Positions 14,553 through 28,620 of a stretch of DNA of 64,000 nucleotides are shown here, piece after piece. Position 1 is the first letter of the stretch. The number at the start of each line of letters is the position of its first letter. The notes under the pieces were generated by a model. That model was not told where the DNA came from and did not search any database. It saw only the letters and a program-made list of their open reading frames with translations. The DNA comes from Escherichia coli (GTDB lineage Bacteria > Pseudomonadota > Gammaproteobacteria > Enterobacterales > Enterobacteriaceae): NCBI RefSeq assembly GCF_013315695.1, contig NZ_CP054353.1; one strand, given 5' to 3'. Both the position numbers and the translations under genes were made by a program.

Positions 14553-14803
14553 TTTGCTTCCAGAAATGATAAAAAAATAATCAAAGGCCGGGGATTATAC
14601 GCTGTATCACGCGCGGAAATGAAGTGATGTTGATGAACGGTGGCGAAATACCCTGGTGAGGTTTTTCACTGCCCGACTTGGGCAAGCACATTTAAGGCTG
14701 GCGGTATCGTGGCAACTGCCGCTACTATTTATGCCGATCAGCAACGTTCAAATCATATTGCACGACGATCGGCTATCCGAGGACACCCACAGTAAGGCAA
14801 GGT

Positions 14804-15553
14804 ATGGAACAGGTTATTACAAAGCGCCGCTATTACGATATTGGTCTACAGATTGAAGAGCTGCTGTATTCAGGCGTATTTAAGGCCGGAGAACGCTTAC
14901 CTTCAGAACGTGAACTGAGCGAGCGGTTTAATACCAGCCGAACTACCATTCGTGAAGCCATCATTATGCTGGAACTGAAAGGCGTATTGAATGTGAAGCA
15001 AGGGTCAGGGATTTTCTTTGTCGACTCCACCGATAAGCTCAGCCAGAAATCATTAATGCCCTATTCAGAAATTGGCCCGTTTGAACTGTTGCAGGCGCGT
15101 CAGGTGATTGAGAGCAATATTACTGGTTTTGCAGCCAGCCAGATTAGCTTTAACGAGTTACAAGAGTTAAAGAAAATAATTAGGTTGCAGGAAAACGCTA
15201 TCGCTGCGGAAAGTGATAAATTTGAAGACCTGGATCACCGATTTCATAGCATTATTGCCGAAGCTACGCAAAATCGGGTACTCATCAAACAAGCCGCTGA
15301 ATTATGGCGGGCGGTACGTACAGAAAACCCCCGCTGGAAGAAACTTAACTACAAGTACCTGCATGAAAAGCATTTGCGTCTGCAATGGCTGGAAGATCAC
15401 CGGGCTATTTTCCTGGCTCTGCAACAGAAAGATTCAGAGCTCGCCAGGGAAGCCTCCTGGAGACACCTGGAAAACAGCAAAAATGAATTGATCAAAATCT
15501 TCAAACAAGACGCATCCATCAGCGATTTTGATGACTTTTTCTTCGCTCGTTAA
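14804..15553 (+). CDS. GntR/FadR-family transcriptional regulator
   Basis: 249 aa; N-terminal winged HTH (LPSERELSERFNTSRTTIREAI), FCD-type C-terminal domain. Confidence 0.8.
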   Translation: MEQVITKRRYYDIGLQIEELLYSGVFKAGERLPSERELSERFNTSRTTIREAIIMLELKGVLNVKQGSGIFFVDSTDKLSQKSLMPYSEIGPFELLQARQVIESNITGFAASQISFNELQELKKIIRLQENAIAAESDKFEDLDHRFHSIIAEATQNRVLIKQAAELWRAVRTENPRWKKLNYKYLHEKHLRLQWLEDHRAIFLALQQKDSELAREASWRHLENSKNELIKIFKQDASISDFDDFFFAR

Positions 15554-15875
15554 CCTTCATTAGTCCAGAGCTGGCGGGAAAAATAACGCCGGCTCTGCCT
15601 TCCGCCCTCCACTGGTACACGCTCTCTTTTTAATTGGTCTAATAAATCGACTATCATCAGATATCTTAGATTAGCGGCAATTATCCCAAAAACTGACTTC
15701 TAAAAAACTTTCCTTTCATTTTATTCATATAACTCATTGATAAAAATATAAATAACGCCTTGTTGTTCTGTTTCGTACTTTTATCTTTCTCTGCAAGCGT
15801 GATGCATCTCTCTGTTTTTGGCCTAGTGAATTATGTAAATTGGTCTACACACAAGCCACCAGGAGTAAGAGCATA

Positions 15876-17348
15876 ATGTCAGGGAACGAAAGTATCAATG
15901 CCGCCCACTATGATCAGGTAACCACCTGGCCTCGGGACGGGTTACAGGCAGATATTGTCCATATTGGTTTTGGCGCTTTTCATCGCGGACACCAGGCGGT
16001 CTACACGGATCTCACTAATCAACTTTCGGACACCCGCTGGGGGATCTTTGAGATCAACCTGTTTGGTGATGCTCAACTGATCGAAAACTTAAATGCACAA
16101 AATGGGCTGTTTTCGGTTGTGGAAACATCTGCATCGCAATCTACCTCACGCCTTGTGCGTTCGGTGGCTGGCGGTATTCATACCCCCAGAGATGGCATTG
16201 CCGCAGCAATCCATAAACTGGCTGAACCTCAGGTAAAAATCGTTTCATTAACCATCACCGAGAAAGGTTATTGCCTCGATCCGCAAACACGTTCACTTGA
16301 TCTCACCAATGGATTAATCCAACACGATCTACAAAACCCGGATGCGCCTCTGTCAGCTATTGGCGTGATCGTCTGTGCTTTGCAACAACGTAAAGCGATA
16401 GGACTCGCCGCTTTTAGTGTGCTCTCCTGTGACAACTTGCCAGACAATGGGCATCTGACGCGCAATGCCGTTCTCGGTTTTGCCCGACAACTGGACCAGC
16501 CCCTGGCTCAGTGGATCGAAGAAAATGTCTCATTTCCAGGCACGATGGTAGATCGCATTGTTCCGGCAATGACTGAATCGCAATTCGCCTTACTGGAAAC
16601 GAAAACCGGTTATGCCGATCCCTGCGGGATCGTCTGCGAATCATTTCGTCAGTGGGTGATCGAAGATAATTTTGTGCGCGGACGACCGAAATGGGATAAA
16701 GCCGGCGCGATGTTTGTCAGCAATGTTCAGCCTTATGAAGAGATGAAGTTACGCATGTTAAATGGTAGCCATTCATTTCTGGCTTATAACGGCTCGCTGG
16801 CAGGCTATGAGTTTATCTGGCAATGCATGGAAGACGCTAATTTTCGTTCCATTACCCACCAACTGATGATTAATGAACAAGCCCGAACACTTAATCCAGA
16901 CTTAAATATCAACATCCAGGAATACGCCGACCTGTTAATTGAACGCTTTAGCAACCGTAACGTTGCACACCGTACCGGGCAAATAGCCATGGACGGTTCA
17001 CAAAAGCTTCCCCAGCGTGCACTGACGCCCTGGCTGAAATTACATCAGCAAAAGCAAAACAATGCTGTTCTGTCACTGCTCGTTGCTGGTTGGTTGCATT
17101 ATGTCATTGATGCTGTTGAGAAAAGCCAGTCTGTCGCTGATCCAATGAATGACCAATTTCAGGCGCTAATAAAGGAACAACAAGACGCATGGCAACAGGC
17201 GCTCGCATTACTGCACCTTAGCGCCATATTTGGTGATTTAAGCAACCATCAGCCATTTATAAATGAAATAAAAATCGCCTTTGCGAATATAAAAAACAAA
17301 GGCATCAAGGCCACCATCAGCCAATTATTATCGGATGAGCAGAAATGA
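15876..17348 (+). CDS. mannitol-dehydrogenase-family oxidoreductase (UxuB/fructuronate reductase-like)
   Basis: About 490 aa from the ATG preceded by AGGAGT; family-level resemblance only. Confidence 0.75.
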   Translation: MSGNESINAAHYDQVTTWPRDGLQADIVHIGFGAFHRGHQAVYTDLTNQLSDTRWGIFEINLFGDAQLIENLNAQNGLFSVVETSASQSTSRLVRSVAGGIHTPRDGIAAAIHKLAEPQVKIVSLTITEKGYCLDPQTRSLDLTNGLIQHDLQNPDAPLSAIGVIVCALQQRKAIGLAAFSVLSCDNLPDNGHLTRNAVLGFARQLDQPLAQWIEENVSFPGTMVDRIVPAMTESQFALLETKTGYADPCGIVCESFRQWVIEDNFVRGRPKWDKAGAMFVSNVQPYEEMKLRMLNGSHSFLAYNGSLAGYEFIWQCMEDANFRSITHQLMINEQARTLNPDLNINIQEYADLLIERFSNRNVAHRTGQIAMDGSQKLPQRALTPWLKLHQQKQNNAVLSLLVAGWLHYVIDAVEKSQSVADPMNDQFQALIKEQQDAWQQALALLHLSAIFGDLSNHQPFINEIKIAFANIKNKGIKATISQLLSDEQK

Positions 17349-18361
17349 AAACATTAATTTGTCAGCAGCCTGGCGTTATGGAATATGTGGAAAAGGATAT
17401 TCCCACACCAGCAGATAATGAAGTGCTGTTAAAAATCAAAGCTGTGGGTATTTGTGGTACTGATATTCACGCTTTTGCCGGCAGACAGCCTTTTTTTAGC
17501 TACCCACGTGTATTAGGTCATGAAATATGCGCCGAAGCGGTTTCGCGAGGCAGCCAGTGCCAAACAGCACAATCAGGCCAGCGCTATTCCGTCATCCCAT
17601 GCATTCCGTGTGGCGAGTGCGCAGCCTGTCGGGAAGAGAAAACGAACTGCTGCGAACGTGTTTCGCTGTATGGCGTGCATCAGGATGGGGGTTTTAGTGA
17701 GTACCTTGCGGTACGTGAAGACAACCTTGTGCCTCTCCCTGACGAGGTCAGCGACAGTGCCGGAGCATTGGTTGAATGTTTCGCCATTGGTGCACATGCC
17801 GTTCGTCGGGCAGAGATCAAGGCTGAACAAAACGTACTGGTGGTTGGCGCTGGGCCAATCGGTCTGGCTACCGCGGCCATCGCCAGGGCTAAAGGGGCGC
17901 ATGTTGTTGTTGCTGATATTGATTGTCAACGTCGCCAGCACGTTGTGGATCATCTGGCAATTAATGTCTTCGACCCAACACAGGAAGGTTTTATTGCCGC
18001 GCTTAGTGAAGTATTTGGCGGCGAACTGGCTTGCGTAGTCCTGGATGCGACGGGAAATAAAGCTTCAATGAGTCATGATGTAAATCTTATTCGTCATGGC
18101 GGCAAAATTGTTTTCATCGGTTTGTACATTGGTGAACTTGTTATTGACGATCCGACCTTCCATAAAAAAGAGACAACGTTACTCAGCAGCCGCAATGCCA
18201 CACGGGAAGATTTTGCGTTGGTGATTGAACTGATGCGCAGCAATAAAATTCACGAAAATTTAATGAAAAACCAGGCATTCAATTTCTTTAGTGTTGGCGA
18301 AGATTACCAGCGTAACGTTGTAGAAAATAAAAATATGGTCAAGGGTGTGATCACTTTTTAA
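17345..18361 (+). CDS. zinc-dependent medium-chain alcohol/polyol dehydrogenase
   Basis: 338 aa; GHE zinc motif, GAGPIGL NAD-binding motif; 4-bp ATGA overlap with the upstream gene. Confidence 0.8.
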   Translation: MKTLICQQPGVMEYVEKDIPTPADNEVLLKIKAVGICGTDIHAFAGRQPFFSYPRVLGHEICAEAVSRGSQCQTAQSGQRYSVIPCIPCGECAACREEKTNCCERVSLYGVHQDGGFSEYLAVREDNLVPLPDEVSDSAGALVECFAIGAHAVRRAEIKAEQNVLVVGAGPIGLATAAIARAKGAHVVVADIDCQRRQHVVDHLAINVFDPTQEGFIAALSEVFGGELACVVLDATGNKASMSHDVNLIRHGGKIVFIGLYIGELVIDDPTFHKKETTLLSSRNATREDFALVIELMRSNKIHENLMKNQAFNFFSVGEDYQRNVVENKNMVKGVITF

Positions 18362-18371
18362 GGGAACAAAT

Positions 18372-19382
18372 ATGACAACTGTTTATGTCAGTGAAGAAAA
18401 TTTAAAATCACTGGTGCACCACAAATTACATACCGCCGGGCTGGATACCGACACCACACAACAGGTGACAGATGTTTTAGTACATGCCGATATTACAGGT
18501 GTGCATTCACATGGTGTTATGCGTGTCGAACATTATTGCACCCGCCTTGCTGCCGGAGGGTTAAATAAAGCCCCGCAGTTTAGCATTGAGCAAATTTCAC
18601 CGTCAGTGGCCATTCTCGACTCTGACGACGGAATGGGGCATTCCGCATTAATTAGCGCCACTGAGCACGCTATTAAACTGGCCCAGCAAGAGGGCCTCGG
18701 TTTTGTTAGCGTTAAAAACACGTCTCACTGTGGTGCGTTATCTTATTTTGCAGAGATGATCACCAACAAAGGGTTGGTTGCTATCGTAATGACGCAAACC
18801 GATACCTGTGTGGCTCCCCATGGCGGCGCCGAGCGCTTTTTGGGAACTAACCCCATCGCCTTTGGTTTCCCGGTGGAAAACAGCCATCCGATGATTGTTG
18901 ATATGGCGACCAGTGCCACGGCTTTCGGCAAAATACTTCATGCAAAGGAAACCGGAAAACATATTGGTGAAGGGCTGGCGATAGATAAAAACGGTTATGG
19001 CACCACTGATCCGTATAAGATTGAAAACCTGCTACCTTTCGGCCAACACAAAGGTTCAGGCATTGCACTGGCTATTGATGCACTGACTGGCGTGCTGATG
19101 AATGCGAATTTTGGCAACCATATTGTTCGCATGTATGGTGATTATGACAAGATGCGTAAGCTGGCAAGTTTGGTTATTGCCATCGATCCGAAAAAGCTCG
19201 GCAATCCTGTTTTTGCAAAAACCATGGCGCAAATGGTCACGGAGTTGCATGCCGTTAAACCGGCTCCCGGTATCGAAAAAGTGTTAGCGCCGAACGATCC
19301 GCAAATGCACTACAAAGAAAAATGCCAACAGGAAGGTATTCCGGTTCCGGCAGGAATATTCCATTATCTGGCAGAGAATTAA
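18372..19382 (+). CDS. Ldh_2-family dehydrogenase (malate/L-lactate or diketogulonate reductase-like)
   Basis: 336 aa; family-level resemblance (YiaK/AllD-like). Confidence 0.75.
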   Translation: MTTVYVSEENLKSLVHHKLHTAGLDTDTTQQVTDVLVHADITGVHSHGVMRVEHYCTRLAAGGLNKAPQFSIEQISPSVAILDSDDGMGHSALISATEHAIKLAQQEGLGFVSVKNTSHCGALSYFAEMITNKGLVAIVMTQTDTCVAPHGGAERFLGTNPIAFGFPVENSHPMIVDMATSATAFGKILHAKETGKHIGEGLAIDKNGYGTTDPYKIENLLPFGQHKGSGIALAIDALTGVLMNANFGNHIVRMYGDYDKMRKLASLVIAIDPKKLGNPVFAKTMAQMVTELHAVKPAPGIEKVLAPNDPQMHYKEKCQQEGIPVPAGIFHYLAEN

Positions 19383-19454
19383 TCACTACTTTTTATTATA
19401 ACGATAGAAAAGCGCTGTATTTATCGTTTCTGTTATATTAACCAGGAGCAGGAT

Positions 19455-20264
19455 ATGAAAGCACTTCGTCCTCTGACGGCATCGCTTATGCTGTTAACCA
19501 GTTGTTTATTAATATCTAATACCACACTGGCAAAAATAACATTAAAACTGAGTCATAATCAGGATAAAAGCCATGCTGTCCATAAAGCATTAAGCTATTT
19601 AGCGGATAAAACCAAAGAGTATTCTAATGGTGAATTAGTTATTCGCATTTACCCAAATGCAACATTAGGTAATGAGCGTGAATCACTGGAATTAATGAAC
19701 TCCGGTGCATTACAGATGGTTAAGGTTAATGCCGCATCACTAGAATCATTTGCTCCAGATTACAGCCTTTTCAGTCTGCCGTTCTTATTCCGCGACCGTG
19801 ATCACTATTATCGTGTTCTGCAAAGTGATTTAGGTAAAAAAATACTTAATTCATCAGAAAGCAAAGGTTTTGTTGGTATTACGTACTATGACGGCGGTGC
19901 GAGAAGTTTTTATTCCAATAAACCGATTACAAAACCTGAAGATTTAGCGGGAATGAAAATCAGGGTTCAACAAAGCCCCAGCGCCATTGCAATGATGAAA
20001 GCACTCGGTGGTGTCGCTACCCCGATGGCGCAAGGCGAACTCTACACCGCACTTCAGCAAGGTGTGGTTGATGGCGGAGAGAACAATACCGTTGTCTATT
20101 CCGATATGCGTCACGCCGAAGTCGCAAAAGTCTATTCACGTGATGAACACACCATGGTACCTGATGTGTTAATTATCAGCACCGACGTGTTGAATAAACT
20201 TGGTGATAAAGAGCGCACGGCATTATTAAAAGCAGCCGGTGATGCTGCCAACTTACTGATTTAG
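19455..20264 (+). pseudogene. TRAP transporter solute-binding protein (DctP family), 3'-truncated by IS1
   Basis: Signal peptide plus DctP-like sequence for 261 codons; last 8 codons (GDAANLLI*) are encoded by the IS1 terminal repeat. Confidence 0.75.
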
Positions 20265-20292
20265 TGTATGATGGTGTTTTTGAGGTGCTCCA

Positions 20293-20568
20293 GTGGCTTC
20301 TGTTTCTATCAGCTGTCCCTCCTGTTCAGCTACTGACGGGGTGGTGCGTAACGGCAAAAGCACCGCCGGACATCAGCGCTATCTCTGCTCTCACTGCCGT
20401 AAAACATGGCAACTGCAGTTCACTTACACCGCTTCTCAACCCGGTACGCACCAGAAAATCATTGATATGGCCATGAATGGCGTTGGATGCCGGGCAACAG
20501 CCCGCATTATGGGCGTTGGCCTCAACACGATTTTACGTCACTTAAAAAACTCAGGCCGCAGTCGGTAA
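20293..20568 (+). CDS. insA: IS1 InsA
   Basis: 91 aa; zinc-finger/HTH protein typical of IS1. Confidence 0.9.
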
Positions 20569-20990
20569 CCTCGCGCATACAGCCGGGCAGTGACGTCATC
20601 GTCTGCGCGGAAATGGACGAACAGTGGGGCTATGTCGGGGCTAAATCGCGCCAGCGCTGGCTGTTTTACGCGTATGACAGGCTCCGGAAGACGGTTGTTG
20701 CGCACGTATTCGGTGAACGCACTATGGCGACGCTGGGGCGTCTTATGAGCCTGCTGTCACCCTTTGACGTGGTGATATGGATGACGGATGGCTGGCCGCT
20801 GTATGAATCCCGCCTGAAGGGAAAGCTGCACGTAATCAGCAAGCGATATACGCAGCGAATTGAGCGGCATAACCTGAATCTGAGGCAGCACCTGGCACGG
20901 CTGGGACGGAAGTCGCTGTCGTTCTCAAAATCGGTGGAGCTGCATGACAAAGTCATCGGGCATTATCTGAACATAAAACACTATCAATAA
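20487..20990 (+). CDS. insB: IS1 InsB frame (transposase made by an InsAB' frameshift)
   Basis: 167-aa ORF overlapping insA in the -1 frame. Confidence 0.9.
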
Positions 20991-21004
20991 GTTGGAGTCA
21001 TTAC

Positions 21005-21046
21005 CGATTATGTCTACAGCAAAGAGTTGTATATCAAGGCACATTG
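21005..21046 (+). pseudogene. ygiS: orphaned 3' end of ygiS (DYVYSKELYIKAH*), displaced by the IS1-bounded inversion
   Basis: First 9 bp gattatgtc are the reverse complement of gacataatc at 26938..26946, which abuts the truncated ygiS; reading on yields ten codons and a stop, restoring the expected 535-aa length. Confidence 0.6.
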
Positions 21047-21184
21047 ATGTCTTTATCGCCGTCGGAGCACGTCCGGCGGCGCTATTCACGCTGATCTCCT
21101 GTGACTCGACGCGGCAGATAATGTAGTATCTCCGGCAATATTGCCCCTTTGAAGGCTGGCGAATAAGTTGAGGAATCAGAATTA

Positions 21185-23443
21185 ATGAGCGATATGGCAG
21201 AGCGCCTTGCGCTACATGAATTTACGGAAAACGCCTACTTAAACTACTCCATGTACGTGATCATGGACCGTGCGTTGCCGTTTATTGGTGATGGTCTGAA
21301 ACCCGTTCAGCGGCGCATTGTGTATGCGATGTCTGAACTGGGTCTGAATGCCAGTGCCAAATTTAAAAAATCGGCCCGTACCGTCGGTGACGTACTGGGT
21401 AAATACCATCCGCACGGCGATAGTGCCTGTTATGAAGCGATGGTCCTGATGGCGCAGCCGTTCTCTTACCGTTATCCGCTGGTTGATGGTCAGGGGAACT
21501 GGGGCGCGCCGGACGATCCGAAATCGTTCGCGGCAATGCGTTACACCGAATCCCGGTTATCGAAATATTCTGAGTTGCTATTAAGCGAGCTTGGACAGGG
21601 GACGGCTGACTGGGTGCCAAACTTCGACGGCACCTTACAGGAGCCGAAAATGCTGCCAGCCCGCCTGCCGAACATTTTGCTTAACGGCACCACCGGTATT
21701 GCCGTCGGCATGGCGACCGATATTCCACCGCATAACCTGCGTGAAGTGGCTCAGGCGGCAATCGCATTAATCGACCAGCCGAAAACCACGCTCGATCAGC
21801 TGCTGGATATCGTGCAGGGGCCGGATTATCCGACTGAAGCGGAAATTATCACTTCGCGCGCCGAGATTCGTAAAATCTACGAGAACGGACGTGGTTCAGT
21901 GCGTATGCGCGCGGTTTGGAAGAAAGAAGATGGCGCGGTGGTTATTAGCGCATTGCCGCATCAGGTTTCAGGTGCGCGCGTACTGGAGCAAATTGCTGCG
22001 CAAATGCGCAACAAAAAGCTGCCGATGGTTGACGATCTGCGCGATGAATCTGACCACGAGAACCCGACCCGTCTGGTGATTGTGCCGCGTTCCAACCGCG
22101 TGGATATGGATCAGGTGATGAACCACCTCTTTGCTACCACCGATCTGGAAAAGAGCTATCGCATTAACCTCAATATGATCGGTCTGGATGGTCGTCCGGC
22201 GGTGAAAAACCTGCTGGAAATCCTCTCCGAATGGCTGGTGTTCCGCCGCGATACCGTGCGCCGCCGACTGAATTATCGTCTGGAGAAAGTCCTCAAGCGC
22301 CTGCATATCCTCGAAGGTTTGCTGGTGGCGTTTCTCAATATCGACGAAGTGATTGAGATCATTCGTAATGAAGATGAACCGAAACCGGCGCTGATGTCGC
22401 GGTTTGGCCTTACTGAAACCCAGGCGGAAGCGATCCTCGAACTGAAACTGCGTCATCTTGCCAAACTGGAAGAGATGAAGATTCGCGGTGAGCAGAGTGA
22501 GCTGGAAAAAGAGCGCGACCAGTTGCAGGGCATTTTGGCTTCCGAGCGTAAAATGAATAACCTGCTGAAGAAAGAACTGCAGGCAGACGCGCAAGCCTAC
22601 GGTGACGAACGTCGTTCGCCGTTGCAGGAACGCGAAGAAGCGAAAGCGATGAGCGAGCACGACATGCTGCCGTCTGAACCTGTCACCATTGTGCTGTCGC
22701 AGATGGGCTGGGTACGCAGCGCTAAAGGCCATGATATCGACGCGCCGGGCCTGAATTATAAAGCGGGCGATAGCTTCAAAGCGGCGGTGAAAGGTAAGAG
22801 CAACCAACCGGTAGTGTTTGTTGATTCCACCGGTCGTAGCTATGCCATCGACCCGATTACGCTGCCGTCGGCGCGTGGTCAGGGCGAACCGCTCACCGGC
22901 AAATTAACGTTGCCGCCTGGAGCGACCGTTGACCATATGCTGATGGAAAGCGACGATCAGAAACTGCTGATGGCTTCCGATGCGGGTTACGGTTTCGTCT
23001 GCACCTTTAACGATTTGGTGGCGCGTAACCGTGCAGGTAAGGCTTTGATCACCTTACCGGAAAATGCCCATGTTATGCCGCCGGTGGTGATTGAAGATGC
23101 TTCCGATATGCTGCTGGCAATCACTCAGGCAGGCCGTATGTTGATGTTCCCGGTAAGCGATCTGCCGCAGCTGTCGAAGGGCAAAGGCAACAAGATTATC
23201 AACATTCCATCGGCAGAAGCCGCGCGTGGAGAAGATGGTCTGGCGCAACTGTACGTTCTGCCGCCGCAAAGCACGCTGACCATTCATGTTGGGAAACGCA
23301 AAATTAAACTGCGTCCGGAAGAGCTACAGAAAGTCACTGGCGAACGTGGACGCCGCGGTACGTTGATGCGCGGTTTGCAGCGTATCGATCGTGTTGAGAT
23401 CGACTCTCCTCGCCGTGCCAGCAGCGGTGATAGCGAAGAGTAA
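21185..23443 (+). CDS. parC: DNA topoisomerase IV subunit A
   Basis: 752 aa; GyrA/ParC family. Confidence 0.95.
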
Positions 23444-23676
23444 TATGCCGGGGAGGGCGCTGTTTCCTCCCGCTTGCAAGGAACGCCGGATGAAACGTTA
23501 AGTCGTCATCCGGCAGCGTATTCTACCCCCGGAAACGATAAAAATTCCCTTGAAACCGTTGTTTATTCATGCGTTGCGATTAACAATACGCTTTTCCAGA
23601 GAGCGGCTTTTAACAATGCCCTAACCTGATTTCAGGTGACGTACAATGCCAGTCTCTCAGACCTTCAGAGGGTGTT

Positions 23677-24414
23677 ATGCTATATATCTTTCGTCTTATT
23701 ATTACCGTGATTTACAGCATCTTAGTCTGTGTATTCGGCTCCATTTACTGCCTTTTCAGCCCGCGTAACCCGAAACATGTGGCCACCTTTGGGCATATGT
23801 TTGGTCGTCTTGCACCGCTGTTCGGCCTGAAAGTTGAGTGCCGCAAACCTGCGGATGCTGAAAGCTACGGCAATGCTATCTATATCGCTAACCACCAGAA
23901 CAACTATGACATGGTCACAGCATCGAACATTGTGCAACCGCCGACGGTGACGGTAGGTAAAAAGAGCTTGCTGTGGATCCCCTTCTTCGGGCAGTTGTAC
24001 TGGTTAACCGGCAACTTATTGATCGACAGAAACAATCGCACTAAAGCTCACGGCACTATTGCGGAAGTCGTGAATCACTTCAAAAAACGCCGTATTTCCA
24101 TCTGGATGTTCCCGGAAGGAACCCGCAGCCGTGGTCGCGGCCTGCTGCCGTTCAAGACCGGGGCATTTCACGCGGCAATTGCGGCGGGCGTCCCGATTAT
24201 TCCCGTGTGCGTCTCTACAACTTCGAATAAGATTAATCTTAATCGACTGCACAACGGTCTGGTGATTGTCGAAATGCTGCCGCCAATTGACGTCAGTCAG
24301 TATGGCAAAGATCAGGTTCGTGAGCTGGCTGCCCATTGTCGTTCGATAATGGAACAAAAAATCGCCGAGCTCGATAAAGAAGTCGCAGAGCGCGAAGCCG
24401 CCGGAAAAGTTTAA
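23677..24414 (+). CDS. plsC: 1-acyl-sn-glycerol-3-phosphate acyltransferase
   Basis: 245 aa; HX4D acyltransferase motif (NHQNNYD). Confidence 0.9.
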   Translation: MLYIFRLIITVIYSILVCVFGSIYCLFSPRNPKHVATFGHMFGRLAPLFGLKVECRKPADAESYGNAIYIANHQNNYDMVTASNIVQPPTVTVGKKSLLWIPFFGQLYWLTGNLLIDRNNRTKAHGTIAEVVNHFKKRRISIWMFPEGTRSRGRGLLPFKTGAFHAAIAAGVPIIPVCVSTTSNKINLNRLHNGLVIVEMLPPIDVSQYGKDQVRELAAHCRSIMEQKIAELDKEVAEREAAGKV

Positions 24415-24488
24415 GTCGGCAATCTGTATTTTTGCGGGGAACACTTTCCTGCACGGTATTACTTTAGCCAGTTTTACATGGAGCAAAT

Positions 24489-25901
24489 ATGTCACTCAGT
24501 CGGCGTCAGTTCATTCAGGCATCGGGGATTGCACTTTGTGCAGGCGCTGTTCCCCTGAAGGCCAGCGCAGCCGGGCAACAGCAACCGCTACCCGTTCCGC
24601 CGCTGCTTGAATCTCGCCGTGGGCAACCGCTGTTTATGACTGTACAACGTGCGCACTGGTCATTTACGCCAGGGACACGCGCGTCGGTTTGGGGAATCAA
24701 TGGTCGTTACCTGGGGCCGACTATCCGCGTCTGGAAGGGCGACGATGTTAAGCTTATTTACAGCAACCGCCTGACAGAAAATGTCTCAATGACGGTGGCC
24801 GGGCTACAGGTACCAGGCCCGCTGATGGGCGGTCCGGCACGGATGATGTCGCCAAACGCTGACTGGGCACCCGTACTGCCCATTCGCCAGAACGCAGCTA
24901 CTCTGTGGTATCACGCCAATACTCCCAACCGCACGGCTCAGCAGGTCTATAACGGCCTTGCCGGAATGTGGCTGGTGGAAGATGAAGTCAGCAAGTCGCT
25001 GCCTATCCCCAACCATTATGGTGTGGATGATTTTCCGGTCATTATCCAGGATAAACGGCTGGATAACTTTGGTACGCCAGAATACAACGAACCGGGAAGC
25101 GGCGGCTTTGTTGGTGATACGCTGCTGGTTAACGGTGTGCAAAGCCCGTACGTTGAAGTCTCGCGTGGCTGGGTGCGCTTGCGACTGCTGAACGCGTCGA
25201 ACTCTCGTCGCTATCAACTACAGATGAGCGATGGTCGCCCGTTACATGTGATTTCTGGCGATCAGGGATTCCTGCCTGCTCCTGTATCGGTGAAGCAACT
25301 TTCGCTGGCACCGGGCGAGCGCCGCGAGATTCTGGTGGATATGAGCAACGGTGATGAAGTGTCGATCACCTGTGGTGAAGCGGCGAGCATTGTTGATCGT
25401 ATTCGCGGCTTCTTTGAGCCATCCAGTATTCTGGTGTCTACGCTGGTGCTAACGCTGCGCCCAACCGGCCTTCTGCCGCTGGTCACAGACAGTCTTCCGA
25501 TGCGCTTGCTGCCAACTGAAATCATGGCCGGTTCGCCGATTCGTAGTCGCGATATCAGTCTGGGTGATGACCCGGGTATTAATGGACAACTGTGGGACGT
25601 CAACCGTATTGATGTCACCGCGCAGCAAGGAACGTGGGAACGCTGGACGGTACGCGCGGACGAGCCGCAAGCGTTCCATATTGAAGGCGTGATGTTCCAG
25701 ATCCGTAACGTGAATGGCGCGATGCCGTTCCCGGAAGACAGAGGCTGGAAAGATACCGTTTGGGTTGACGGACAAGTGGAGCTGCTGGTTTATTTCGGTC
25801 AGCCTTCCTGGGCGCACTTCCCGTTCTACTTCAACAGTCAGACGCTGGAAATGGCGGACCGTGGCTCGATTGGGCAACTGTTGGTCAATCCGGTACCGTA
25901 A
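24489..25901 (+). CDS. ftsP: cell-division multicopper-oxidase-like protein (SufI)
   Basis: 470 aa; Tat signal peptide (SRRQFI). Confidence 0.9.
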   Translation: MSLSRRQFIQASGIALCAGAVPLKASAAGQQQPLPVPPLLESRRGQPLFMTVQRAHWSFTPGTRASVWGINGRYLGPTIRVWKGDDVKLIYSNRLTENVSMTVAGLQVPGPLMGGPARMMSPNADWAPVLPIRQNAATLWYHANTPNRTAQQVYNGLAGMWLVEDEVSKSLPIPNHYGVDDFPVIIQDKRLDNFGTPEYNEPGSGGFVGDTLLVNGVQSPYVEVSRGWVRLRLLNASNSRRYQLQMSDGRPLHVISGDQGFLPAPVSVKQLSLAPGERREILVDMSNGDEVSITCGEAASIVDRIRGFFEPSSILVSTLVLTLRPTGLLPLVTDSLPMRLLPTEIMAGSPIRSRDISLGDDPGINGQLWDVNRIDVTAQQGTWERWTVRADEPQAFHIEGVMFQIRNVNGAMPFPEDRGWKDTVWVDGQVELLVYFGQPSWAHFPFYFNSQTLEMADRGSIGQLLVNPVP

Positions 25902-25911
25902 TGGACCAATT

Positions 25912-25940
25912 CAATGCCCCACAGAGTGGTGGGGCATTGA
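25912..25940. terminator. hairpin after ftsP, possibly bidirectional with the dctM remnant
   Basis: Perfect stem aatgcccca...tggggcatt. Confidence 0.4.
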
Positions 25941-25971
25941 AAATTACTCAGTATGCAGTCTTCACTGTGTA

Positions 25972-26170
25972 TCAGGTCGAAAATAATCCTGGCAGCATCA
26001 GACTAAGCTGCGGGAAATAACAAATAATTGCCATTACTACAAACAATGCCAGAAACATCGGCAGTAATGGTTTTATTGCCCTGTCGATACTGACCTTACC
26101 AATGCTGCACCCCACAAACAGAATGGTGCCGACAGGTGGTGTGCAAAGGCCAATGGTTAAGTTGAAAACG
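25972..26170 (-). pseudogene. C-terminal remnant of a TRAP transporter large permease (DctM-like), cut by IS1
   Basis: Minus-strand translation from the IS1 junction: VFNLTIGLCTPPVGTILFVGCSIGKVSIDRAIKPLLPMFLALFVVMAIICYFPQLSLMLPGLFST*; no start codon. Confidence 0.6.
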
Positions 26171-26184
26171 GTAATGACTCCAAC

Positions 26185-26688
26185 TTATTGATAGTGTTTT
26201 ATGTTCAGATAATGCCCGATGACTTTGTCATGCAGCTCCACCGATTTTGAGAACGACAGCGACTTCCGTCCCAGCCGTGCCAGGTGCTGCCTCAGATTCA
26301 GGTTATGCCGCTCAATTCGCTGCGTATATCGCTTGCTGATTACGTGCAGCTTTCCCTTCAGGCGGGATTCATACAGCGGCCAGCCATCCGTCATCCATAT
26401 CACCACGTCAAAGGGTGACAGCAGGCTCATAAGACGCCCCAGCGTCGCCATAGTGCGTTCACCGAATACGTGCGCAACAACCGTCTTCCGGAGCCTGTCA
26501 TACGCGTAAAACAGCCAGCGCTGGCGCGATTTAGCCCCGACATAGCCCCACTGTTCGTCCATTTCCGCGCAGACGATGACGTCACTGCCCGGCTGTATGC
26601 GCGAGGTTACCGACTGCGGCCTGAGTTTTTTAAGTGACGTAAAATCGTGTTGAGGCCAACGCCCATAATGCGGGCTGTTGCCCGGCAT
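26185..26688 (-). CDS. insB: IS1 InsB frame
   Basis: Protein identical to the copy-1 InsB. Confidence 0.9.
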
Positions 26689-26882
26689 CCAACGCCATTC
26701 ATGGCCATATCAATGATTTTCTGGTGCGTACCGGGTTGAGAAGCGGTGTAAGTGAACTGCAGTTGCCATGTTTTACGGCAGTGAGAGCAGAGATAGCGCT
26801 GATGTCCGGCGGTGCTTTTGCCGTTACGCACCACCCCGTCAGTAGCTGAACAGGAGGGACAGCTGATAGAAACAGAAGCCAC
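26607..26882 (-). CDS. insA: IS1 InsA
   Basis: Protein identical to the copy-1 InsA. Confidence 0.9.
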
Positions 26883-26910
26883 TGGAGCACCTCAAAAACA
26901 CCATCATACA

Positions 26911-28512
26911 CTAAATCAGTAAGTTGGCAGCATCACCGACATAATCCTGGGGATTATGCAGCGGAAAACCGCCAACGTAGGGTTTAAGCAGTTTGATTAA
27001 CGGCTGATAATAGACAGGAATGAGCGGTGCCTGCTGGTTGATGATCACTTCTGCCTGCTGATACAACGCATTACGCTTTGTTGCATCAGCCGTTTGTGCC
27101 GCCTGGTTTAGTAAGGCGTCATACTGCGCGTTTTTCCAGTGGCCGACATTTTCCTCGCTATCGCTCTTAAGCGTGTTCAGAAAGGTGGAGGCATCATTGT
27201 ACGTCGCATCCCACGACTGCCGAGACAACATGAAATCACCGGCTCGTCGGGCATCAAGATAAGTTTTCCACTCCATTGTGCGCAGCGTCACCTGTGCACC
27301 CAGCCATTTTTTCCATTCGGAAGACAACGCTATCGCGGTCTTTTCATGCAGATCGTACTTGTTGTAGAACAGCTCAAAGCGAAGCGGATGAGAGGCGTCG
27401 TATCCCGCCTGTTTCAACAAGGCTTTTGCCATCGCGACGCGCTCACTCAGCGGCTTTTGCAGTTCATCGAACGTCGTCGCGCTAAAGCCTTTTACCTCTG
27501 GCGGCGTCAGCGTAGTTGCGGGCGTTCTCAACCCCAGTACCTTTTGCGCAATAAGCTGTCGATCAACCGTAAGATATAGCGCCCGACGCACCCGCACATC
27601 GTTAAATGGCGGTTTCTCAAGGTTGAAGTTGTAATATTCGCTGTTCAGACGCGGAATAATTCGTAGCTCGCCAGGCAGTGATTTTTCAATGGCGGGAATT
27701 TGCTGCGCCGGAACCCAGGTGAGATCGACCTCTCCCGCGCGATAGCGGTTATAGCCGGTGACCGAATTATCCAGCGCCAGATACTCAACCTGTTGCAATA
27801 CTGTATGTTGCGCATCGCGGTACTTTGGATTTTTGCGTGCAGTAATCTTTTCGTTAACTACCCACTGATCAAGCACAAAGGCACCGTTGTAAACCATGTT
27901 CTCTGGCTTACTCCAGCTATCGCCATGTTTAGCGATGACATGATGAGGAACCGGGAACAGCGTCGGCCAGGCGAGCATCGTCGTGAACCAAGGAACTGGC
28001 TGCTCAAGCGTAACTTCAAGAGTACGATCATCCATCGCTTTGACACCCAGCGATGTAACATCTGCTTTACCCGCAACAATAGCCGCGGCATTGTTAATGT
28101 GCGCCTGTGCCAGATAGCCAGCAAAAGGGCTTGCCGTTTTCGGGTCAACCGCACGTTGCCAGCCGAGGACAAAATCCTCTGCTGTCAGAGGCTGACCGTC
28201 TGACCACTGCAAACCGCTACGCAGATGGAAAATATAGCGCTTGCCGCCGTCCAGTATCTCCCAGCGTTCAGCCTGAGCGGGCTGCACCTGGCCTTCACCG
28301 TCCATCCATACCAGACCTTCAAACAGATCCAGCACAATCTGCGCGGCAGTATTCTCCTCTACCTTTTGCGGGTCGAGCGTGCCTGGGTCGCTATGATTGT
28401 TGTAACGAAAAACTTGTTGCGGGGCGAGCGGTGTGTTGGCGGGAACGTCAGCAGCGTAGAGAGGAGCCGCACTTACCAGGCTGACCAGCCATAATAAATT
28501 TCGCGTATACAT
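26911..28512 (-). CDS. ygiS: periplasmic oligopeptide-type ABC substrate-binding protein with an IS1-encoded C-terminal tail
   Basis: 533 aa; signal peptide; SBP family 5; last 8 aa GDAANLLI come from the IS1 end (native part 26938..28512). Confidence 0.75.
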   Translation of the reverse strand: MYTRNLLWLVSLVSAAPLYAADVPANTPLAPQQVFRYNNHSDPGTLDPQKVEENTAAQIVLDLFEGLVWMDGEGQVQPAQAERWEILDGGKRYIFHLRSGLQWSDGQPLTAEDFVLGWQRAVDPKTASPFAGYLAQAHINNAAAIVAGKADVTSLGVKAMDDRTLEVTLEQPVPWFTTMLAWPTLFPVPHHVIAKHGDSWSKPENMVYNGAFVLDQWVVNEKITARKNPKYRDAQHTVLQQVEYLALDNSVTGYNRYRAGEVDLTWVPAQQIPAIEKSLPGELRIIPRLNSEYYNFNLEKPPFNDVRVRRALYLTVDRQLIAQKVLGLRTPATTLTPPEVKGFSATTFDELQKPLSERVAMAKALLKQAGYDASHPLRFELFYNKYDLHEKTAIALSSEWKKWLGAQVTLRTMEWKTYLDARRAGDFMLSRQSWDATYNDASTFLNTLKSDSEENVGHWKNAQYDALLNQAAQTADATKRNALYQQAEVIINQQAPLIPVYYQPLIKLLKPYVGGFPLHNPQDYVGDAANLLI

Positions 28513-28620
28513 GGTATTCCTTACCGGAGAAATTATAAGCCCGACAACAATACGCCTGTGGCATTGTTAGCTCAAACTTATCGCGAGTGATTTGGCTCAC
28601 ACTCCGGTAAAGATTCCCCA

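Follow-up and report, generated by a model that had tools for sequence, protein, structure and literature searches.

This study investigated which pathway is encoded by the gene cluster lying between ygiQ and the parC block in this Escherichia coli chromosome, and how the cluster came to occupy that position. The window analyzed, a stretch of 64,000 nt, matched two E. coli genomes at 100% identity, and family assignments were drawn from NCBIfam, PDB sequence matches, and the RefSeq annotation of the identical DNA. The original prediction described an accessory sugar-acid-type catabolic module of five co-directional genes; all five open reading frames were present on the plus strand, and genome comparison confirmed that ygiQ of K-12 MG1655 adjoins ftsP across a 110-bp spacer containing none of the cluster genes. 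The island starts in this spacer, 59 bp of which it replaces from window position 14603. An intact island comprises 7,744 bp (7.7 kb) that are not in K-12 and encodes a UxuR/ExuR-like GntR regulator, a mannitol-dehydrogenase-family enzyme, a zinc-dependent dehydrogenase (Zn-ADH), an AllD-like Ldh_2 enzyme, and dctPQM, which is followed by ftsP on the minus strand (dctP-dctQ-dctM-ftsP). The AT richness noted for the TRAP-encoding part was also evident: the GC content was 41.6% in the truncated dctP, with 500-nt windows down to 37%, compared with 47.5% in the three dehydrogenase genes and 54.5% in ygiQ/parC. The island is a horizontally acquired sugar-acid operon that is accessory in E. coli.

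Among 5426 complete E. coli genomes, 1212 (about a fifth) carried the island, and it was near full length in 1202 of these carriers. The dN/dS values ranged from 0.02 to 0.16 over all seven island genes, with 0.02-0.04 for the regulator gene; the three enzyme genes, compared across E. coli, E. albertii, and E. whittamii, gave 0.06-0.16. Purifying selection acts on the island genes. A 2026 paper (PMC12928451), the sole one on this region found in our literature search, lists it as the uncharacterized "GR 21". Sporadic pseudogenes were also observed, namely a frameshift in the mannitol-dehydrogenase-family gene of CUVET20-PYO4, a stop codon in the same gene of the E. albertii type strain, and dctP W272* in 10 genomes.

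The placement between ygiQ and the parC block holds for the window, but parC is a neighbor of the island only because of an IS1-mediated inversion. The originally predicted end of the cluster, 20237, proved to be exactly the last base ahead of an IS1 copy, which interrupts dctP at codon 261; an 1842-bp deletion has taken away dctQ and most of dctM. The segment ygiS'-parC-plsC-ftsP is inverted between this copy and a second one, and its gene order and strands are opposite to those in K-12 and in intact-island strains. The 9-bp sequence GATTATGTC (21006-21014) is the reverse complement of GACATAATC (26938-26946), a split target duplication. Within the inversion, the right end of the island persists as 69 bp of 3' non-coding DNA and the last 65 codons with the stop codon of dctM (25972-26169), which RefSeq labels a partial 'TRAP transporter large permease subunit'. 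The operon in this strain has no uptake system of its own, and its regulator and three enzymes are intact.

Table. Features of the island and of the adjoining rearrangement (window positions)
Feature	Position	Strand	Basis or remark
Island left end and non-coding leader 5' of the regulator gene	14603..14803		K-12 homology stops at 14602
GntR/FadR-family regulator, 249 aa	14804..15553	+	NCBIfam; RefSeq name FadR/GntR family regulator
Operator-like box AATTGGTCTA, first copy	15632..15641	+	10 nt, identical in sequence and direction to the box at 15838
Degenerate box TTTGGCCTAG (15818-15827), then second AATTGGTCTA box (15838-15847)	15818..15847	+	
Long-chain mannitol-dehydrogenase-family enzyme, 490 aa, UxuB/YdfI (fructuronate reductase) type	15876..17348	+	
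Zn-dependent MDR dehydrogenase (Zn-ADH), 338 aa, paralogue of LgoD/YjjN (L-galactonate 5-dehydrogenase)	17345..18361	+	
Ldh_2-family oxidoreductase, 336 aa, AllD-like	18372..19382	+	
dctP 5' part, 261 codons, TRAP substrate-binding protein	19455..20237	+	ORF runs 27 nt into IS1, to 20264
IS1 copy 1, 768 bp	20238..21005	+	terminal inverted repeat from 20238; insA, insB by NCBIfam
Inverted segment: last 42 bp of ygiS, parC, plsC, ftsP; genes now on +	21006..25902		K-12 DNA aligns in reverse
Island right-end remnant within the inversion	25903..26169	-	aligns to L003 11527-11747
IS1 copy 2, inverted relative to copy 1, inserted in the ygiS 3' end	26170..26937	-	

Protein searches with each open reading frame revealed that none of the enzymes reaches an NCBIfam equivalog cut-off, and the set matches no fully characterized operon. 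The mannitol-dehydrogenase-family enzyme, for which we used the RefSeq start (the list of open reading frames places a TTG start upstream at 15840), scored 508 bits against fructuronate reductase (cut-off 603); its best PDB match was YdfI (4im7, 476 bits), and it carries the GFGAFHR Rossmann motif and K291-x4-N-x2-H. The predicted 4-bp gene overlap was located at its stop codon, where TGA overlaps the ATG of the Zn-ADH gene in cagaaATGAaaac. The Zn-ADH shares 56% identity with E. coli LgoD and contains GICGTD, LGHE, the structural-zinc cysteine cluster, GAGPIG, and VVVAD. The Ldh_2 enzyme scored 342.5 (cut-off 356) and 320 (cut-off 496) against the two NCBIfam AllD models; eight of the nine AllD active-site residues are identical in it, and the ninth is changed from S140 to T. 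The originally suggested likeness to yiaK/yiaMNO is only loose, since the PDB match of this enzyme to AllD (265 bits) exceeds that to YiaK (81 bits).

The curated families closest to the regulator were UxuR (191.7 bits) and ExuR (184.3 bits), both scores lying under the cut-offs; its orthologues have PF00392+PF07729. E. coli retains the AATTGGTCTA boxes 5' of the first dehydrogenase gene, whose start codon lies 28 nt past the end of the second box, and the first box is kept in E. coli, E. albertii, E. whittamii, and Klebsiella. A homologous box arrangement occurs 153 bp 5' of the Salmonella stm3169 homologue. At 13 loci, a TTGGT-N2/3-ACCAA palindrome of the FadR-subfamily type (PMC4494728) was found in the spacer 5' of the dehydrogenase block, mostly a divergent spacer common to the block and a cycloisomerase/kinase operon. 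The regulator is read as a local UxuR/ExuR-like repressor with a presumed effector.

The binding protein encoded by dctP is 83% identical to STM3169 of Salmonella and conserves all seven of its ligand residues (N35, Q36, E74, R150, R170, N210, and D237). STM3169 binds D-glucuronate with a Kd of 0.17-0.25 uM, and its ligand residues have been reported (Herman 2020, PMC7660916). The E. coli dctPQM is the syntenic orthologue of STM3169-71 and, judged by sequence, probably a glucuronate-type importer; we infer the compound that it would supply to the dehydrogenases. The Ldh_2-dctP gap in Escherichia measures 72 nt, and no terminator-like site was found within it.

The three dehydrogenase genes form a block whose order and spacing are the same in Escherichia, Klebsiella, Phytobacter, Budvicia, Enterobacillus, Vibrio, Neiella, Agarivorans, Aliagarivorans, Alginatibacterium, Psychromonas, and Pseudovibrio. 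When E. coli was compared with the Vibrio and Alteromonadales-type loci, conservation was highest for Ldh_2 (67-77% identity), followed by the Zn-ADH (60-70%) and the mannitol-dehydrogenase-family enzyme (45-62%). Related loci were sampled with Ldh_2 peptides as seeds and covered +/-10 kb each; in 20 of 32 of them, a 3,6-anhydro-L-galactonate cycloisomerase stood beside the block, usually together with KDG kinase and aldolase. Frequent partners were KDG kinase, Eda, GH117, GH2, and AHG dehydrogenase (865 bits to 6j75), and in several loci a DUF386/YiaL gene and a TRAP system come after Ldh_2. A module of cycloisomerase, block, and MFS transporter also occurs in Salmonella salamae, K. quasipneumoniae, and one E. 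coli. A uxaC gene was seen in the Budvicia aquatica locus L032 only, beside a second mannitol-dehydrogenase-family gene several kb off the block.

The cycloisomerase loci of Zobellia, Pontiella, and Rubripirellula carry, without the block, another Zn-ADH (25% identical to that of the island) and a KduD-like SDR; that of Labilibaculum also lacks the block and has only a partial, uncalled stretch resembling this SDR. No KduD-like SDR was found within 10 kb of the block-bearing cycloisomerase loci. Among the sampled cycloisomerase loci, the block and the Zn-ADH+SDR pair, which takes the next steps in other phyla, are thus mutually exclusive.

The substrate had been considered not assignable from sequence. 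The genome context of the block in other bacteria nevertheless points to an L-threo-configured hexonate as the dehydrogenase substrate, most likely 2-keto-3-deoxy-L-galactonate (L-KDGal), and the transporter has a characterized orthologue in STM3169. Our tentative reading is that the block may convert L-KDGal to KDG, and its enzymes look like ones that may complete the degradation of 3,6-anhydro-L-galactose, a sugar of red seaweeds. By standard carbohydrate configurations, L-KDGal has the C4-right/C5-left tail of the LgoD substrates, and mannitol-dehydrogenase-family substrates have the C4-right/C5-right tail of KDG. The operon would consist of two modules on one promoter/operator region. In the first, comprising the UxuR/ExuR-like repressor and three tightly coupled NAD-type dehydrogenases, the LgoD-like Zn-ADH would oxidize the hydroxyl at C5, yielding 2,5-diketo-3-deoxygluconate, the UxuB-like enzyme would re-reduce this product in the D configuration, and chromosomal KdgK and Eda would perform the last steps; the AllD-like Ldh_2 would be expected to act at the C2 keto/hydroxy group beside the carboxylate. 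The second, dctPQM, would be a high-affinity importer. We infer all catalytic steps of the three dehydrogenases, to which the searchable literature assigns no role; a 2024 review states that the entry of L-KDGal into central metabolism after the cycloisomerase step is still to be elucidated (PMC11219438). The cycloisomerase reaction itself comes from the literature, which assigns L-KDGal no fate in Vibrio or E. coli.

Several findings count against the L-KDGal reading. The C5 inversion takes two enzymes and leaves Ldh_2, the most conserved enzyme of the block, unexplained, the island has neither cycloisomerase nor AHG dehydrogenase, and we know of no evident gut or urinary source of L-KDGal. 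The nearest characterized relatives use L-galactonate and D-fructuronate rather than 2-keto-3-deoxy acids, the STM3169 ligand D-glucuronate is not obviously used by the three dehydrogenases, and the regulator and operator resemble those of hexuronate regulators. E. coli without the island is reported to consume L-KDGal, and the block is therefore not strictly required.

The main rival, which we consider rather unlikely, is an auxiliary branch of the Ashwell (hexuronate) pathway for L-aldonates that epimerizes L-gulonate or L-galactonate. The TRAP system would import D-glucuronate, perhaps L-gulonate; the Zn-ADH would oxidize L-gulonate/L-galactonate at C5 to D-fructuronate/D-tagaturonate; and a UxuB-like reduction would yield D-mannonate/D-altronate for chromosomal UxuA/UxaA, KdgK, and Eda, with the UxuR-like repressor sensing a keto-uronate and Ldh_2 contributing a side activity. 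The identity of the Zn-ADH to LgoD, fructuronate reductase and YdfI as the best family and structure for its partner, the closeness of the regulator to UxuR and ExuR, the FadR/UxuR-type GT-N2-AC operator spacing, and the binding of D-glucuronate by the transporter orthologue all agree with such a branch. It is also favored by the L-gulonate pathway published for Haemophilus influenzae and Chromohalobacter salexigens, which reportedly combines a Zn-ADH, a mannitol-dehydrogenase-family enzyme, a TRAP system, and UxuR. However, all three enzymes have orthologues linked to the anhydrogalactonate cycloisomerase, and the product of the latter, with its 2-keto-3-deoxy head already in place, cannot pass UxuA/UxaA. 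Neither uxuA nor uxaA was found in the block neighborhoods, the lone uxaC lies several kb away from the block, E. coli already possesses lgoD, uxuB, and uxaB, and Ldh_2 is likewise left unexplained.

Only a linear keto-aldonate pathway would place the three dehydrogenases in a chemically sensible straight line: Ldh_2 would form the L-aldonate by reducing 2-keto-L-gulonate (or 2-keto-L-galactonate), the Zn-ADH would oxidize C5, and the mannitol-dehydrogenase-family enzyme would form D-mannonate. The TRAP protein would import the keto-aldonate, the pyranose of which is almost isosteric with D-glucuronate. This scheme agrees with the use of 2-oxo/2-hydroxy acids by Ldh_2 enzymes (AllD; PMC3527362) and with the loci in which DUF386/YiaL and TRAP genes recall yiaK-yiaL-yiaMNO, the kind of logic suggested in the original prediction. 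YiaK is nevertheless distant from Ldh_2, the link to cycloisomerase, KdgK, and Eda would have no explanation, and the published STM3169 ligand tests did not include keto-aldonates; we regard this pathway as improbable. It is more doubtful still that the E. coli dehydrogenases are without function, left over from a module that included a cycloisomerase and kept only by co-transcription with a useful glucuronate importer. The island does lack the cycloisomerase and MFS transporter of the complete enterobacterial module, and sporadic pseudogenes occur in the mannitol-dehydrogenase-family gene and dctP, but the low dN/dS of the three enzymes across the three Escherichia species and the near-full-length islands of most carriers argue against decay, and Salmonella demonstrates that the importer can be retained alone. 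Highly improbable is a second ureidoglycolate dehydrogenase in purine/allantoin nitrogen metabolism: Ldh_2 is 41% identical to AllD, with a single conservative active-site change, and comes near one AllD cut-off, yet it falls under both curated ones, and about 40 neighborhoods contained no allantoin genes, their constant partners being sugar-acid enzymes.

Comparison with known systems places the island among several partial counterparts. STM3169-STM3171 of Salmonella Typhimurium (Haneda 2010, PMC3022708; Herman 2020, PMC7660916) occupies the same site (ygiQ / dctPQM / ftsP) and shares with the island the carboxylate-binding Arg170 as well as a promoter region that is rich in AT and contains a TTGGTCTA box; it is under ppGpp and SsrB control and needed for survival in macrophages. 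The Salmonella transporter stands alone, without dehydrogenases, whereas the Escherichia dctPQM follows the regulator and three dehydrogenases and is destroyed in this window. As cited in PMC5943477, Lee et al. 2014 described an L-KDGal 5-dehydrogenase and a 2,5-diketo-3-deoxy-L-galactonate 5-reductase (P. atlantica ABG41067/ABG41068) after the cycloisomerase. The block would take the same pathway position, next to the cycloisomerase and ahead of KDG kinase and aldolase, with the same proposed C5 oxidation and re-reduction, but the Zn-ADH of that pair is 25% identical to that of the island, its reductase is an SDR rather than a mannitol-dehydrogenase-family enzyme, and it has no Ldh_2 partner.

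The lgoR-lgoT-lgoD system with UxaB/UxuB follows the same logic, L-hexonate to D-hexonate through C5 inversion, with an LgoD-type Zn-ADH, a mannitol-dehydrogenase-family reductase as the next enzyme, and a GntR/FadR-type regulator. It lies at another locus and uses an MFS instead of a TRAP transporter; Ldh_2 is extra in the island, and the block orthologues, unlike lgo, accompany a cycloisomerase whose product is a 2-keto-3-deoxy acid. In the yiaK-yiaL-yiaMNO system (2,3-diketo-L-gulonate reductase, DUF386 protein, and TRAP transporter), the combination of Ldh_2, DUF386, and TRAP recurs as in many related loci, whereas the island has an AllD-like Ldh_2, no DUF386 gene, and a TRAP system of a different, hexuronate-binding group. 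The AHG dehydrogenase and cycloisomerase of the Vibrio sp. EJY3-type AHG cluster have been characterized (PDB 5xd7, 6j75). In related Vibrio, Neiella, and Agarivorans loci, block orthologues (45-77% identical) lie divergently beside a cycloisomerase-Eda-KdgK operon, whereas the E. coli island carries the block without cycloisomerase, AHG dehydrogenase, GH117, or agarases.

The ORF listing agreed with the original prediction of a co-directional five-gene cluster in placing all five genes on the + strand, and the 4-bp overlap that had been proposed was real, an ATGA being shared by the mannitol-dehydrogenase-family (MDH) gene and the Zn-dependent dehydrogenase (Zn-ADH) gene. The Zn-ADH and Ldh_2-family genes were separated by 10 nucleotides. 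Families were assigned by using NCBIfam, PDB sequence matches, and the RefSeq annotation of identical DNA, and no island enzyme reached a curated NCBIfam equivalog cut-off. The GC contents were 41.6% for the truncated dctP, 47.5% for the dehydrogenase genes, and 54.5% for the flanking core genes, which is consistent with the AT-richness claimed for the TRAP-encoding part. The genes were also absent from K-12, as had been claimed: ygiQ and ftsP are 110 bp apart in K-12 MG1655, and K-12 homology stops at window position 14602 and restarts one base past the ftsP stop codon. Strains with an intact island have 7,744 bp in place of 59 bp of the K-12 spacer; there, the dehydrogenase genes are followed by dctP (327 aa), dctQ (160 aa), and dctM (434 aa), and then by ftsP on the opposite strand. 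An Rfam scan of 14000-27500 returned zero matches.

Features of the island and comparison loci carrying the fuller module
Feature	Position	Strand	Remark
GntR/FadR regulator	14804-15553	+	NCBIfam, RefSeq annotation of identical DNA
AATTGGTCTA box, exact	15632
AATTGGTCTA box, mutated	15818
AATTGGTCTA box, exact	15838
Mannitol-dehydrogenase-family gene	15876-17348	+	RefSeq start, AGGAG 8 nt upstream of start
Zn-dependent dehydrogenase	17345-18361	+
Ldh_2-family gene	18372-19382	+
DctP-type TRAP binding protein, 5' part	from 19455	+
IS1 copy 1	20238-21005	+	768 bp
IS1 copy 2	26170-26937	-	opposite orientation to copy 1
Fuller-module locus L043	5298-12365
Fuller-module locus L042
Fuller-module locus L040	2960-11968

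The regulator and the three enzymes encoded in the window were identical to those in intact relatives. The transporter genes were damaged: dctP was interrupted by IS1 after codon 261, its ORF running on into the IS1 end, dctQ was absent, and dctM was reduced to its last 65 codons, both of the latter subunits being intact in other strains. The two full-length IS1 copies are inverted relative to each other, and a 9-bp target duplication is split across the inversion, the 9 bases to the right of copy 1 (GATTATGTC) being the reverse complement of the 9 bases to the right of copy 2 (GACATAATC). This sequence is single-copy in K-12, 33-42 nt ahead of the ygiS stop codon; because the matching 9-bp flanks map to K-12 ygiS, IS1 first entered the ygiS 3' end. 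A second IS1 lay in the TRAP genes in inverted orientation, and recombination between the two then flipped the segment ygiS'-parC-plsC-ftsP-dctM' (21006-26169), in which the essential genes parC, plsC, and ftsP are inverted compared with K-12. The other flank pair was mismatched and 1842 bp were missing (dctP codon 262 to dctM codon 368), showing that an IS1-adjacent deletion also occurred. Given that one flank pair matches and the other does not, so that an extra deletion is required, we rejected single-step IS1 replicative inversion. The exact arrangement was common to two complete genomes, MSB1_4I and OZ547117. In the window strain, IS1 has crippled the module: the operon has lost its own importer, and for practical purposes no uptake system of its own remains functional.

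The rearrangement also touched the neighboring genes. IS1 sits in the ygiS 3' end (26911-26946, 21006-21047), where IS1-encoded residues stand in for the last 10 codons (533 aa versus 535); the tail cut off from ygiS has come to lie ahead of parC. In addition, ygiS is followed directly by ygiV (28513-28620), the intervening mqsR-mqsA toxin-antitoxin pair of K-12 being absent.

The island was detected in 1212 of 5426 complete E. coli genomes, including those of UTI89 and one O25b:H4-ST131 strain, and was near full length in 1202 of the 1212. A 2026 paper lists it as 'GR 21, ygiQ..ftsP' under uncharacterised sugar metabolism and reports complete copies in seven reference strains of the APEC, UPEC, neonatal-meningitis, and AIEC types (PMC12928451). 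Pairwise comparisons of the window or of L003, the locus to which the dctM remnant of the window aligns, with a divergent E. coli, E. albertii, and E. whittamii gave dN/dS values of 0.02-0.16 for all seven genes, indicating that the island genes are maintained by selection. General decay of the island in E. coli was rejected on the basis of the near full length in most carriers, the low dN/dS, and the occurrence of the dctP nonsense mutation W272* in only 10 genomes. An MDH frameshift in one dog isolate was a sporadic pseudogene, and the E. albertii type strain (L005 7358-8830) had an internal stop at MDH codon 417, its other island genes being intact. The W272* mutation (TGG-to-TGA, L001 14716-14718) was found in strain EC1 and nine other genomes. 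Its carriers are the closest relatives of the window strain having an uninterrupted island, so the importer may have been defective before IS1 arrived. A few kb upstream of the EC1 island (L001 3201-5305), a further IS1 has taken the place of yqhD and of parts of yqhC and dkgA; the three genes are retained in a close relative of the window strain.

The binding protein scored above the cut-offs of the NCBIfam TRAP_S1 and dctP models and contained R170 and R150. Intact E. coli DctP was 83% identical to its Salmonella enterica homologue, the gene for which also lies between ygiQ and ftsP and is followed by dctQ and dctM; the dehydrogenases are absent there. The importer is a transporter with a CHARACTERISED orthologue, Salmonella STM3169-71. 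Seven STM3169 residues have been proposed to hold the ligand, namely N35, Q36, E74, R150, R170, N210, and D237 (PMC7660916); all seven were invariant among E. coli, Klebsiella, and Salmonella (alignment A1) and fall inside the 261 codons kept in the window. For purified STM3169, the Kd of D-glucuronate was 0.17-0.25 uM, neither D-galacturonate nor D-gluconate produced a signal, and D-galactonate caused a thermal shift but no binding signal in the other assays (PMC7660916). The best structural relatives of E. coli DctP were 4ovr, 4x8r, 4n8y, 4mhf, 4n91, and 4n15; some DctP structural relatives are glucuronate or galacturonate binders (PMC7660916), the ligand identities of these PDB matches deriving mostly from statements in that paper on 4N91, 4MHF, and 4N15. 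STM3169 is macrophage-induced in a ppGpp- and SsrB-dependent manner and is required for intracellular survival (PMC3022708). The island transporter corresponds to a Salmonella factor that is required within macrophages.

We further analyzed the three dehydrogenases (the trio). The Zn-ADH contained catalytic and structural zinc ligands, with C37 (GICGTD), H59-E60 (LGHE), and a C-x2-C-x2-C-x7-C cluster, as well as the Rossmann motif GAGPIG and an Asp closing strand beta2 (VVVAD). It was 56% identical over its full length to the E. coli L-galactonate 5-dehydrogenase LgoD, and it is an LgoD paralogue, not the same gene. The MDH protein carried the catalytic motif K291-x4-N-x2-H and GFGAFHR and matched YdfI (4im7) with 476 bits; its orthologues have PF01232 and PF08125. 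Its NCBIfam score as a fructuronate reductase, 508 bits, was below the curated cut-off of 603. The active site of ureidoglycolate dehydrogenase (AllD) comprises S43, H44, R48, Y52, H116, S140, D141, M251, and R259 (PMC3527362), and the Ldh_2-family protein was identical at eight of these nine positions, with S140 replaced by T. The same pattern was observed in five further homologues, four of which were orthologues from other loci of the dehydrogenase block. Because the AllD site is retained, this enzyme is predicted to use NAD(H) either for oxidising an (S)-2-hydroxy acid or for reducing a 2-oxo acid. An identity with AllD itself was rejected on the NCBIfam scores (342.5 versus 356 and 320 versus 496) and the lack of an allantoin context, allantoin genes being found in none of the neighborhoods examined. 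Ldh_2 was the most conserved of the three dehydrogenases. A 482-aa metagenomic protein, P0035, combined Zn-ADH and Ldh_2 domains and shared 76% identity with the Zn-ADH of the island; it represents either a sequencing artefact or two neighboring genes that have fused naturally.

The genome-context comparison that the original prediction had called for revealed that the trio is a conserved unit with informative neighbors. A scan with Ldh_2 peptides, limited to one genome per species, yielded 32 loci, 29-30 of which contained all three genes, and the order MDH, Zn-ADH, Ldh_2 and the spacing were nearly always kept. The loci were from Escherichia, Klebsiella, Phytobacter, Budvicia, Enterobacillus, many Vibrio, Neiella, Agarivorans, Aliagarivorans, Alginatibacterium, Psychromonas, and the alphaproteobacterium Pseudovibrio. 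The trio was adjoined in 20 loci, usually divergently, by an enolase-superfamily gene, the product of which matched the 3,6-anhydro-alpha-L-galactonate cycloisomerase PDB 5xd7 with 669 bits; this cycloisomerase was 64-80% identical between genera, the enterobacterial ones included. Its operon commonly contained 2-keto-3-deoxygluconate (KDG) kinase and KDPG aldolase genes, and GH117, GH2, and GH50-like genes and an aldehyde dehydrogenase gene (865 bits to 6j75) were frequent neighbors. Other loci had KduI, a DUF386/YiaL gene, KdgT, KduD, or a different TRAP system. In two Vibrio loci (L013 and L016), a second Ldh_2 paralogue was located beside GH117/GH2 genes, as the last ORF after GH117, and that of L016 was preceded by its own TTGGTTAACCAA box.

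The complete enterobacterial module consisted of a regulator, the cycloisomerase, the trio, an MFS transporter, and sometimes DUF386. Its position was between speA and speB in Salmonella salamae and next to gyrB in K. quasipneumoniae; the only complete E. coli genome with it, that of a crow isolate, also had it next to gyrB. Another Salmonella lineage (L036) had lost the cycloisomerase and MFS genes. The 3,6-anhydro-L-galactose (AHG) dehydrogenase and the cycloisomerase were absent from the window and from every ygiQ-ftsP island examined, although both are encoded beside the orthologous trio elsewhere, indicating that the E. coli island is not an AHG cluster. Nevertheless, its enzymes may perform the same downstream steps as those in AHG clusters.

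The regulator had UxuR/ExuR-like family matches, winged-helix N-terminal and FCD domains (Pfam, orthologues), and a candidate operator, placing it in the GntR/FadR subfamily. The operator consensus of the FadR subfamily is TKGT-N2-3-ACMA (PMC4494728), and a matching palindrome, TTGGT-N2/3-ACCAA, preceded the dehydrogenase block at 13 loci, mostly in the divergent spacer that this block shares with the cycloisomerase/kinase operon, and was present ahead of other cluster genes as well. The putative operator boxes of Escherichia and Klebsiella (AATTGGTCTA) had a degenerate right half. The same box, similarly arranged, precedes the Salmonella stm3169 homologue by 153 bp, even though no regulator gene lies next to it, suggesting control by a regulator from another locus, perhaps UxuR or ExuR. 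In the promoter region of this homologue (L041 7640-7900), the AAATTGGTCT and TTTGGTCTATTGA boxes resemble those ahead of the dehydrogenase operon of E. coli. In E. coli, the gap between Ldh_2 and dctP was 72 nt, and a promoter/terminator scan, which overall returned no more matches than shuffled sequence, reported no terminator-like site in it; the importer and the enzymes are therefore probably co-transcribed.

The cycloisomerase product is 2-keto-3-deoxy-L-galactonate (L-KDGal). A 2024 review describes its subsequent fate as one that 'remains to be elucidated' in both Vibrio and E. coli (PMC11219438), and the published P. atlantica route proceeds via 2,5-diketo-3-deoxy-L-galactonate to KDG (PMC5943477). 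The cycloisomerase and AHG dehydrogenase genes of Zobellia, Pontiella, and Rubripirellula have genes for a Zn-ADH and a KduD-like SDR on their flanks, a pair that fits the enzymes of the published route; the Labilibaculum cycloisomerase locus contained only a partial, uncalled stretch similar to the SDR. The trio was present in none of these four loci, and neither that SDR nor the accompanying Zn-ADH was found within 10 kb of the trio-bearing cycloisomerase loci. Such complementarity is the pattern of non-orthologous replacement. Moreover, a supplier of KDG must exist, because the kinase and aldolase in the cycloisomerase operon need KDG. The island Zn-ADH was rejected as an orthologue of the published type of L-KDGal 5-dehydrogenase, being 25% identical to the Zobellia enzyme.

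L-galactonate, L-gulonate, and L-KDGal have one C4/C5 arrangement in common; the other arrangement is that of D-mannonate, D-altronate, D-mannitol, and KDG, which mannitol-dehydrogenase-family enzymes make and use. By our own reasoning from standard configurations, oxidation at C5 by the LgoD-like enzyme and then reduction by the UxuB-like enzyme would convert L-KDGal to KDG. That the trio acts on L-KDGal to give KDG is our tentative preferred reading, although we are slightly more doubtful of it than confident. Two enzymes would suffice for this conversion, yet the third, Ldh_2, is the best conserved; moreover, the E. coli island has no cycloisomerase, and the known ligand of its importer is D-glucuronate, for the use of which by the trio we derived no route. 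Ldh_2 could possibly be used twice, transiently reducing the C2 keto group and thereby blocking cyclisation during the C5 inversion, or it may have a separate keto-acid substrate. The import of a related acid is conceivable, since the ring form of L-KDGal resembles a 4-deoxy-hexuronate and the STM3169 ligand panel comprised only six compounds (PMC7660916). L-gulonate or L-galactonate as the substrate of the trio, which the likeness to LgoD would also fit, appears rather unlikely. A literature search on L-gulonate, fructuronate reductase, and TRAP yielded nothing useful. Both readings are compatible if the enzymes accept several L-threo-configured acids.

Broader still is the proposal that the trio is an unrecognised non-orthologous replacement for the two L-KDGal-to-KDG enzymes that fills the gap in the Vibrio-type pathway for red-seaweed sugar, that Ldh_2 has a role new to its family, such as transient C2 keto reduction keeping the acid open-chain during C5 inversion, and that extraintestinal-pathogenic E. 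coli lineages paired the trio with an orthologue of the transporter that supports Salmonella survival in macrophages, so as to scavenge host- or diet-derived uronate-like acids. Taken as a whole, we consider this rather unlikely. The literature search found no paper giving the trio a role after L-KDGal, and a search on the CFT073 locus tags c3751-c3756, guessed for the island, returned nothing useful. The L-KDGal gap limits the engineering of microbes that ferment red-seaweed sugar, and three specific candidate genes are now named for it. The analysis also provides a first functional frame for an island present in approximately a fifth of sequenced E. coli, including UTI89, ST131, and avian pathogenic lineages.

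The original reading of a sugar-acid-type accessory module is supported by these results and can be sharpened through the orthologous importer and the neighborhoods of the trio. Compared with known systems, the island is known only as a genomic region; the importer adds a member to a characterised transporter type, and the enzyme block is best regarded as a novel version of an already known segment of a pathway.
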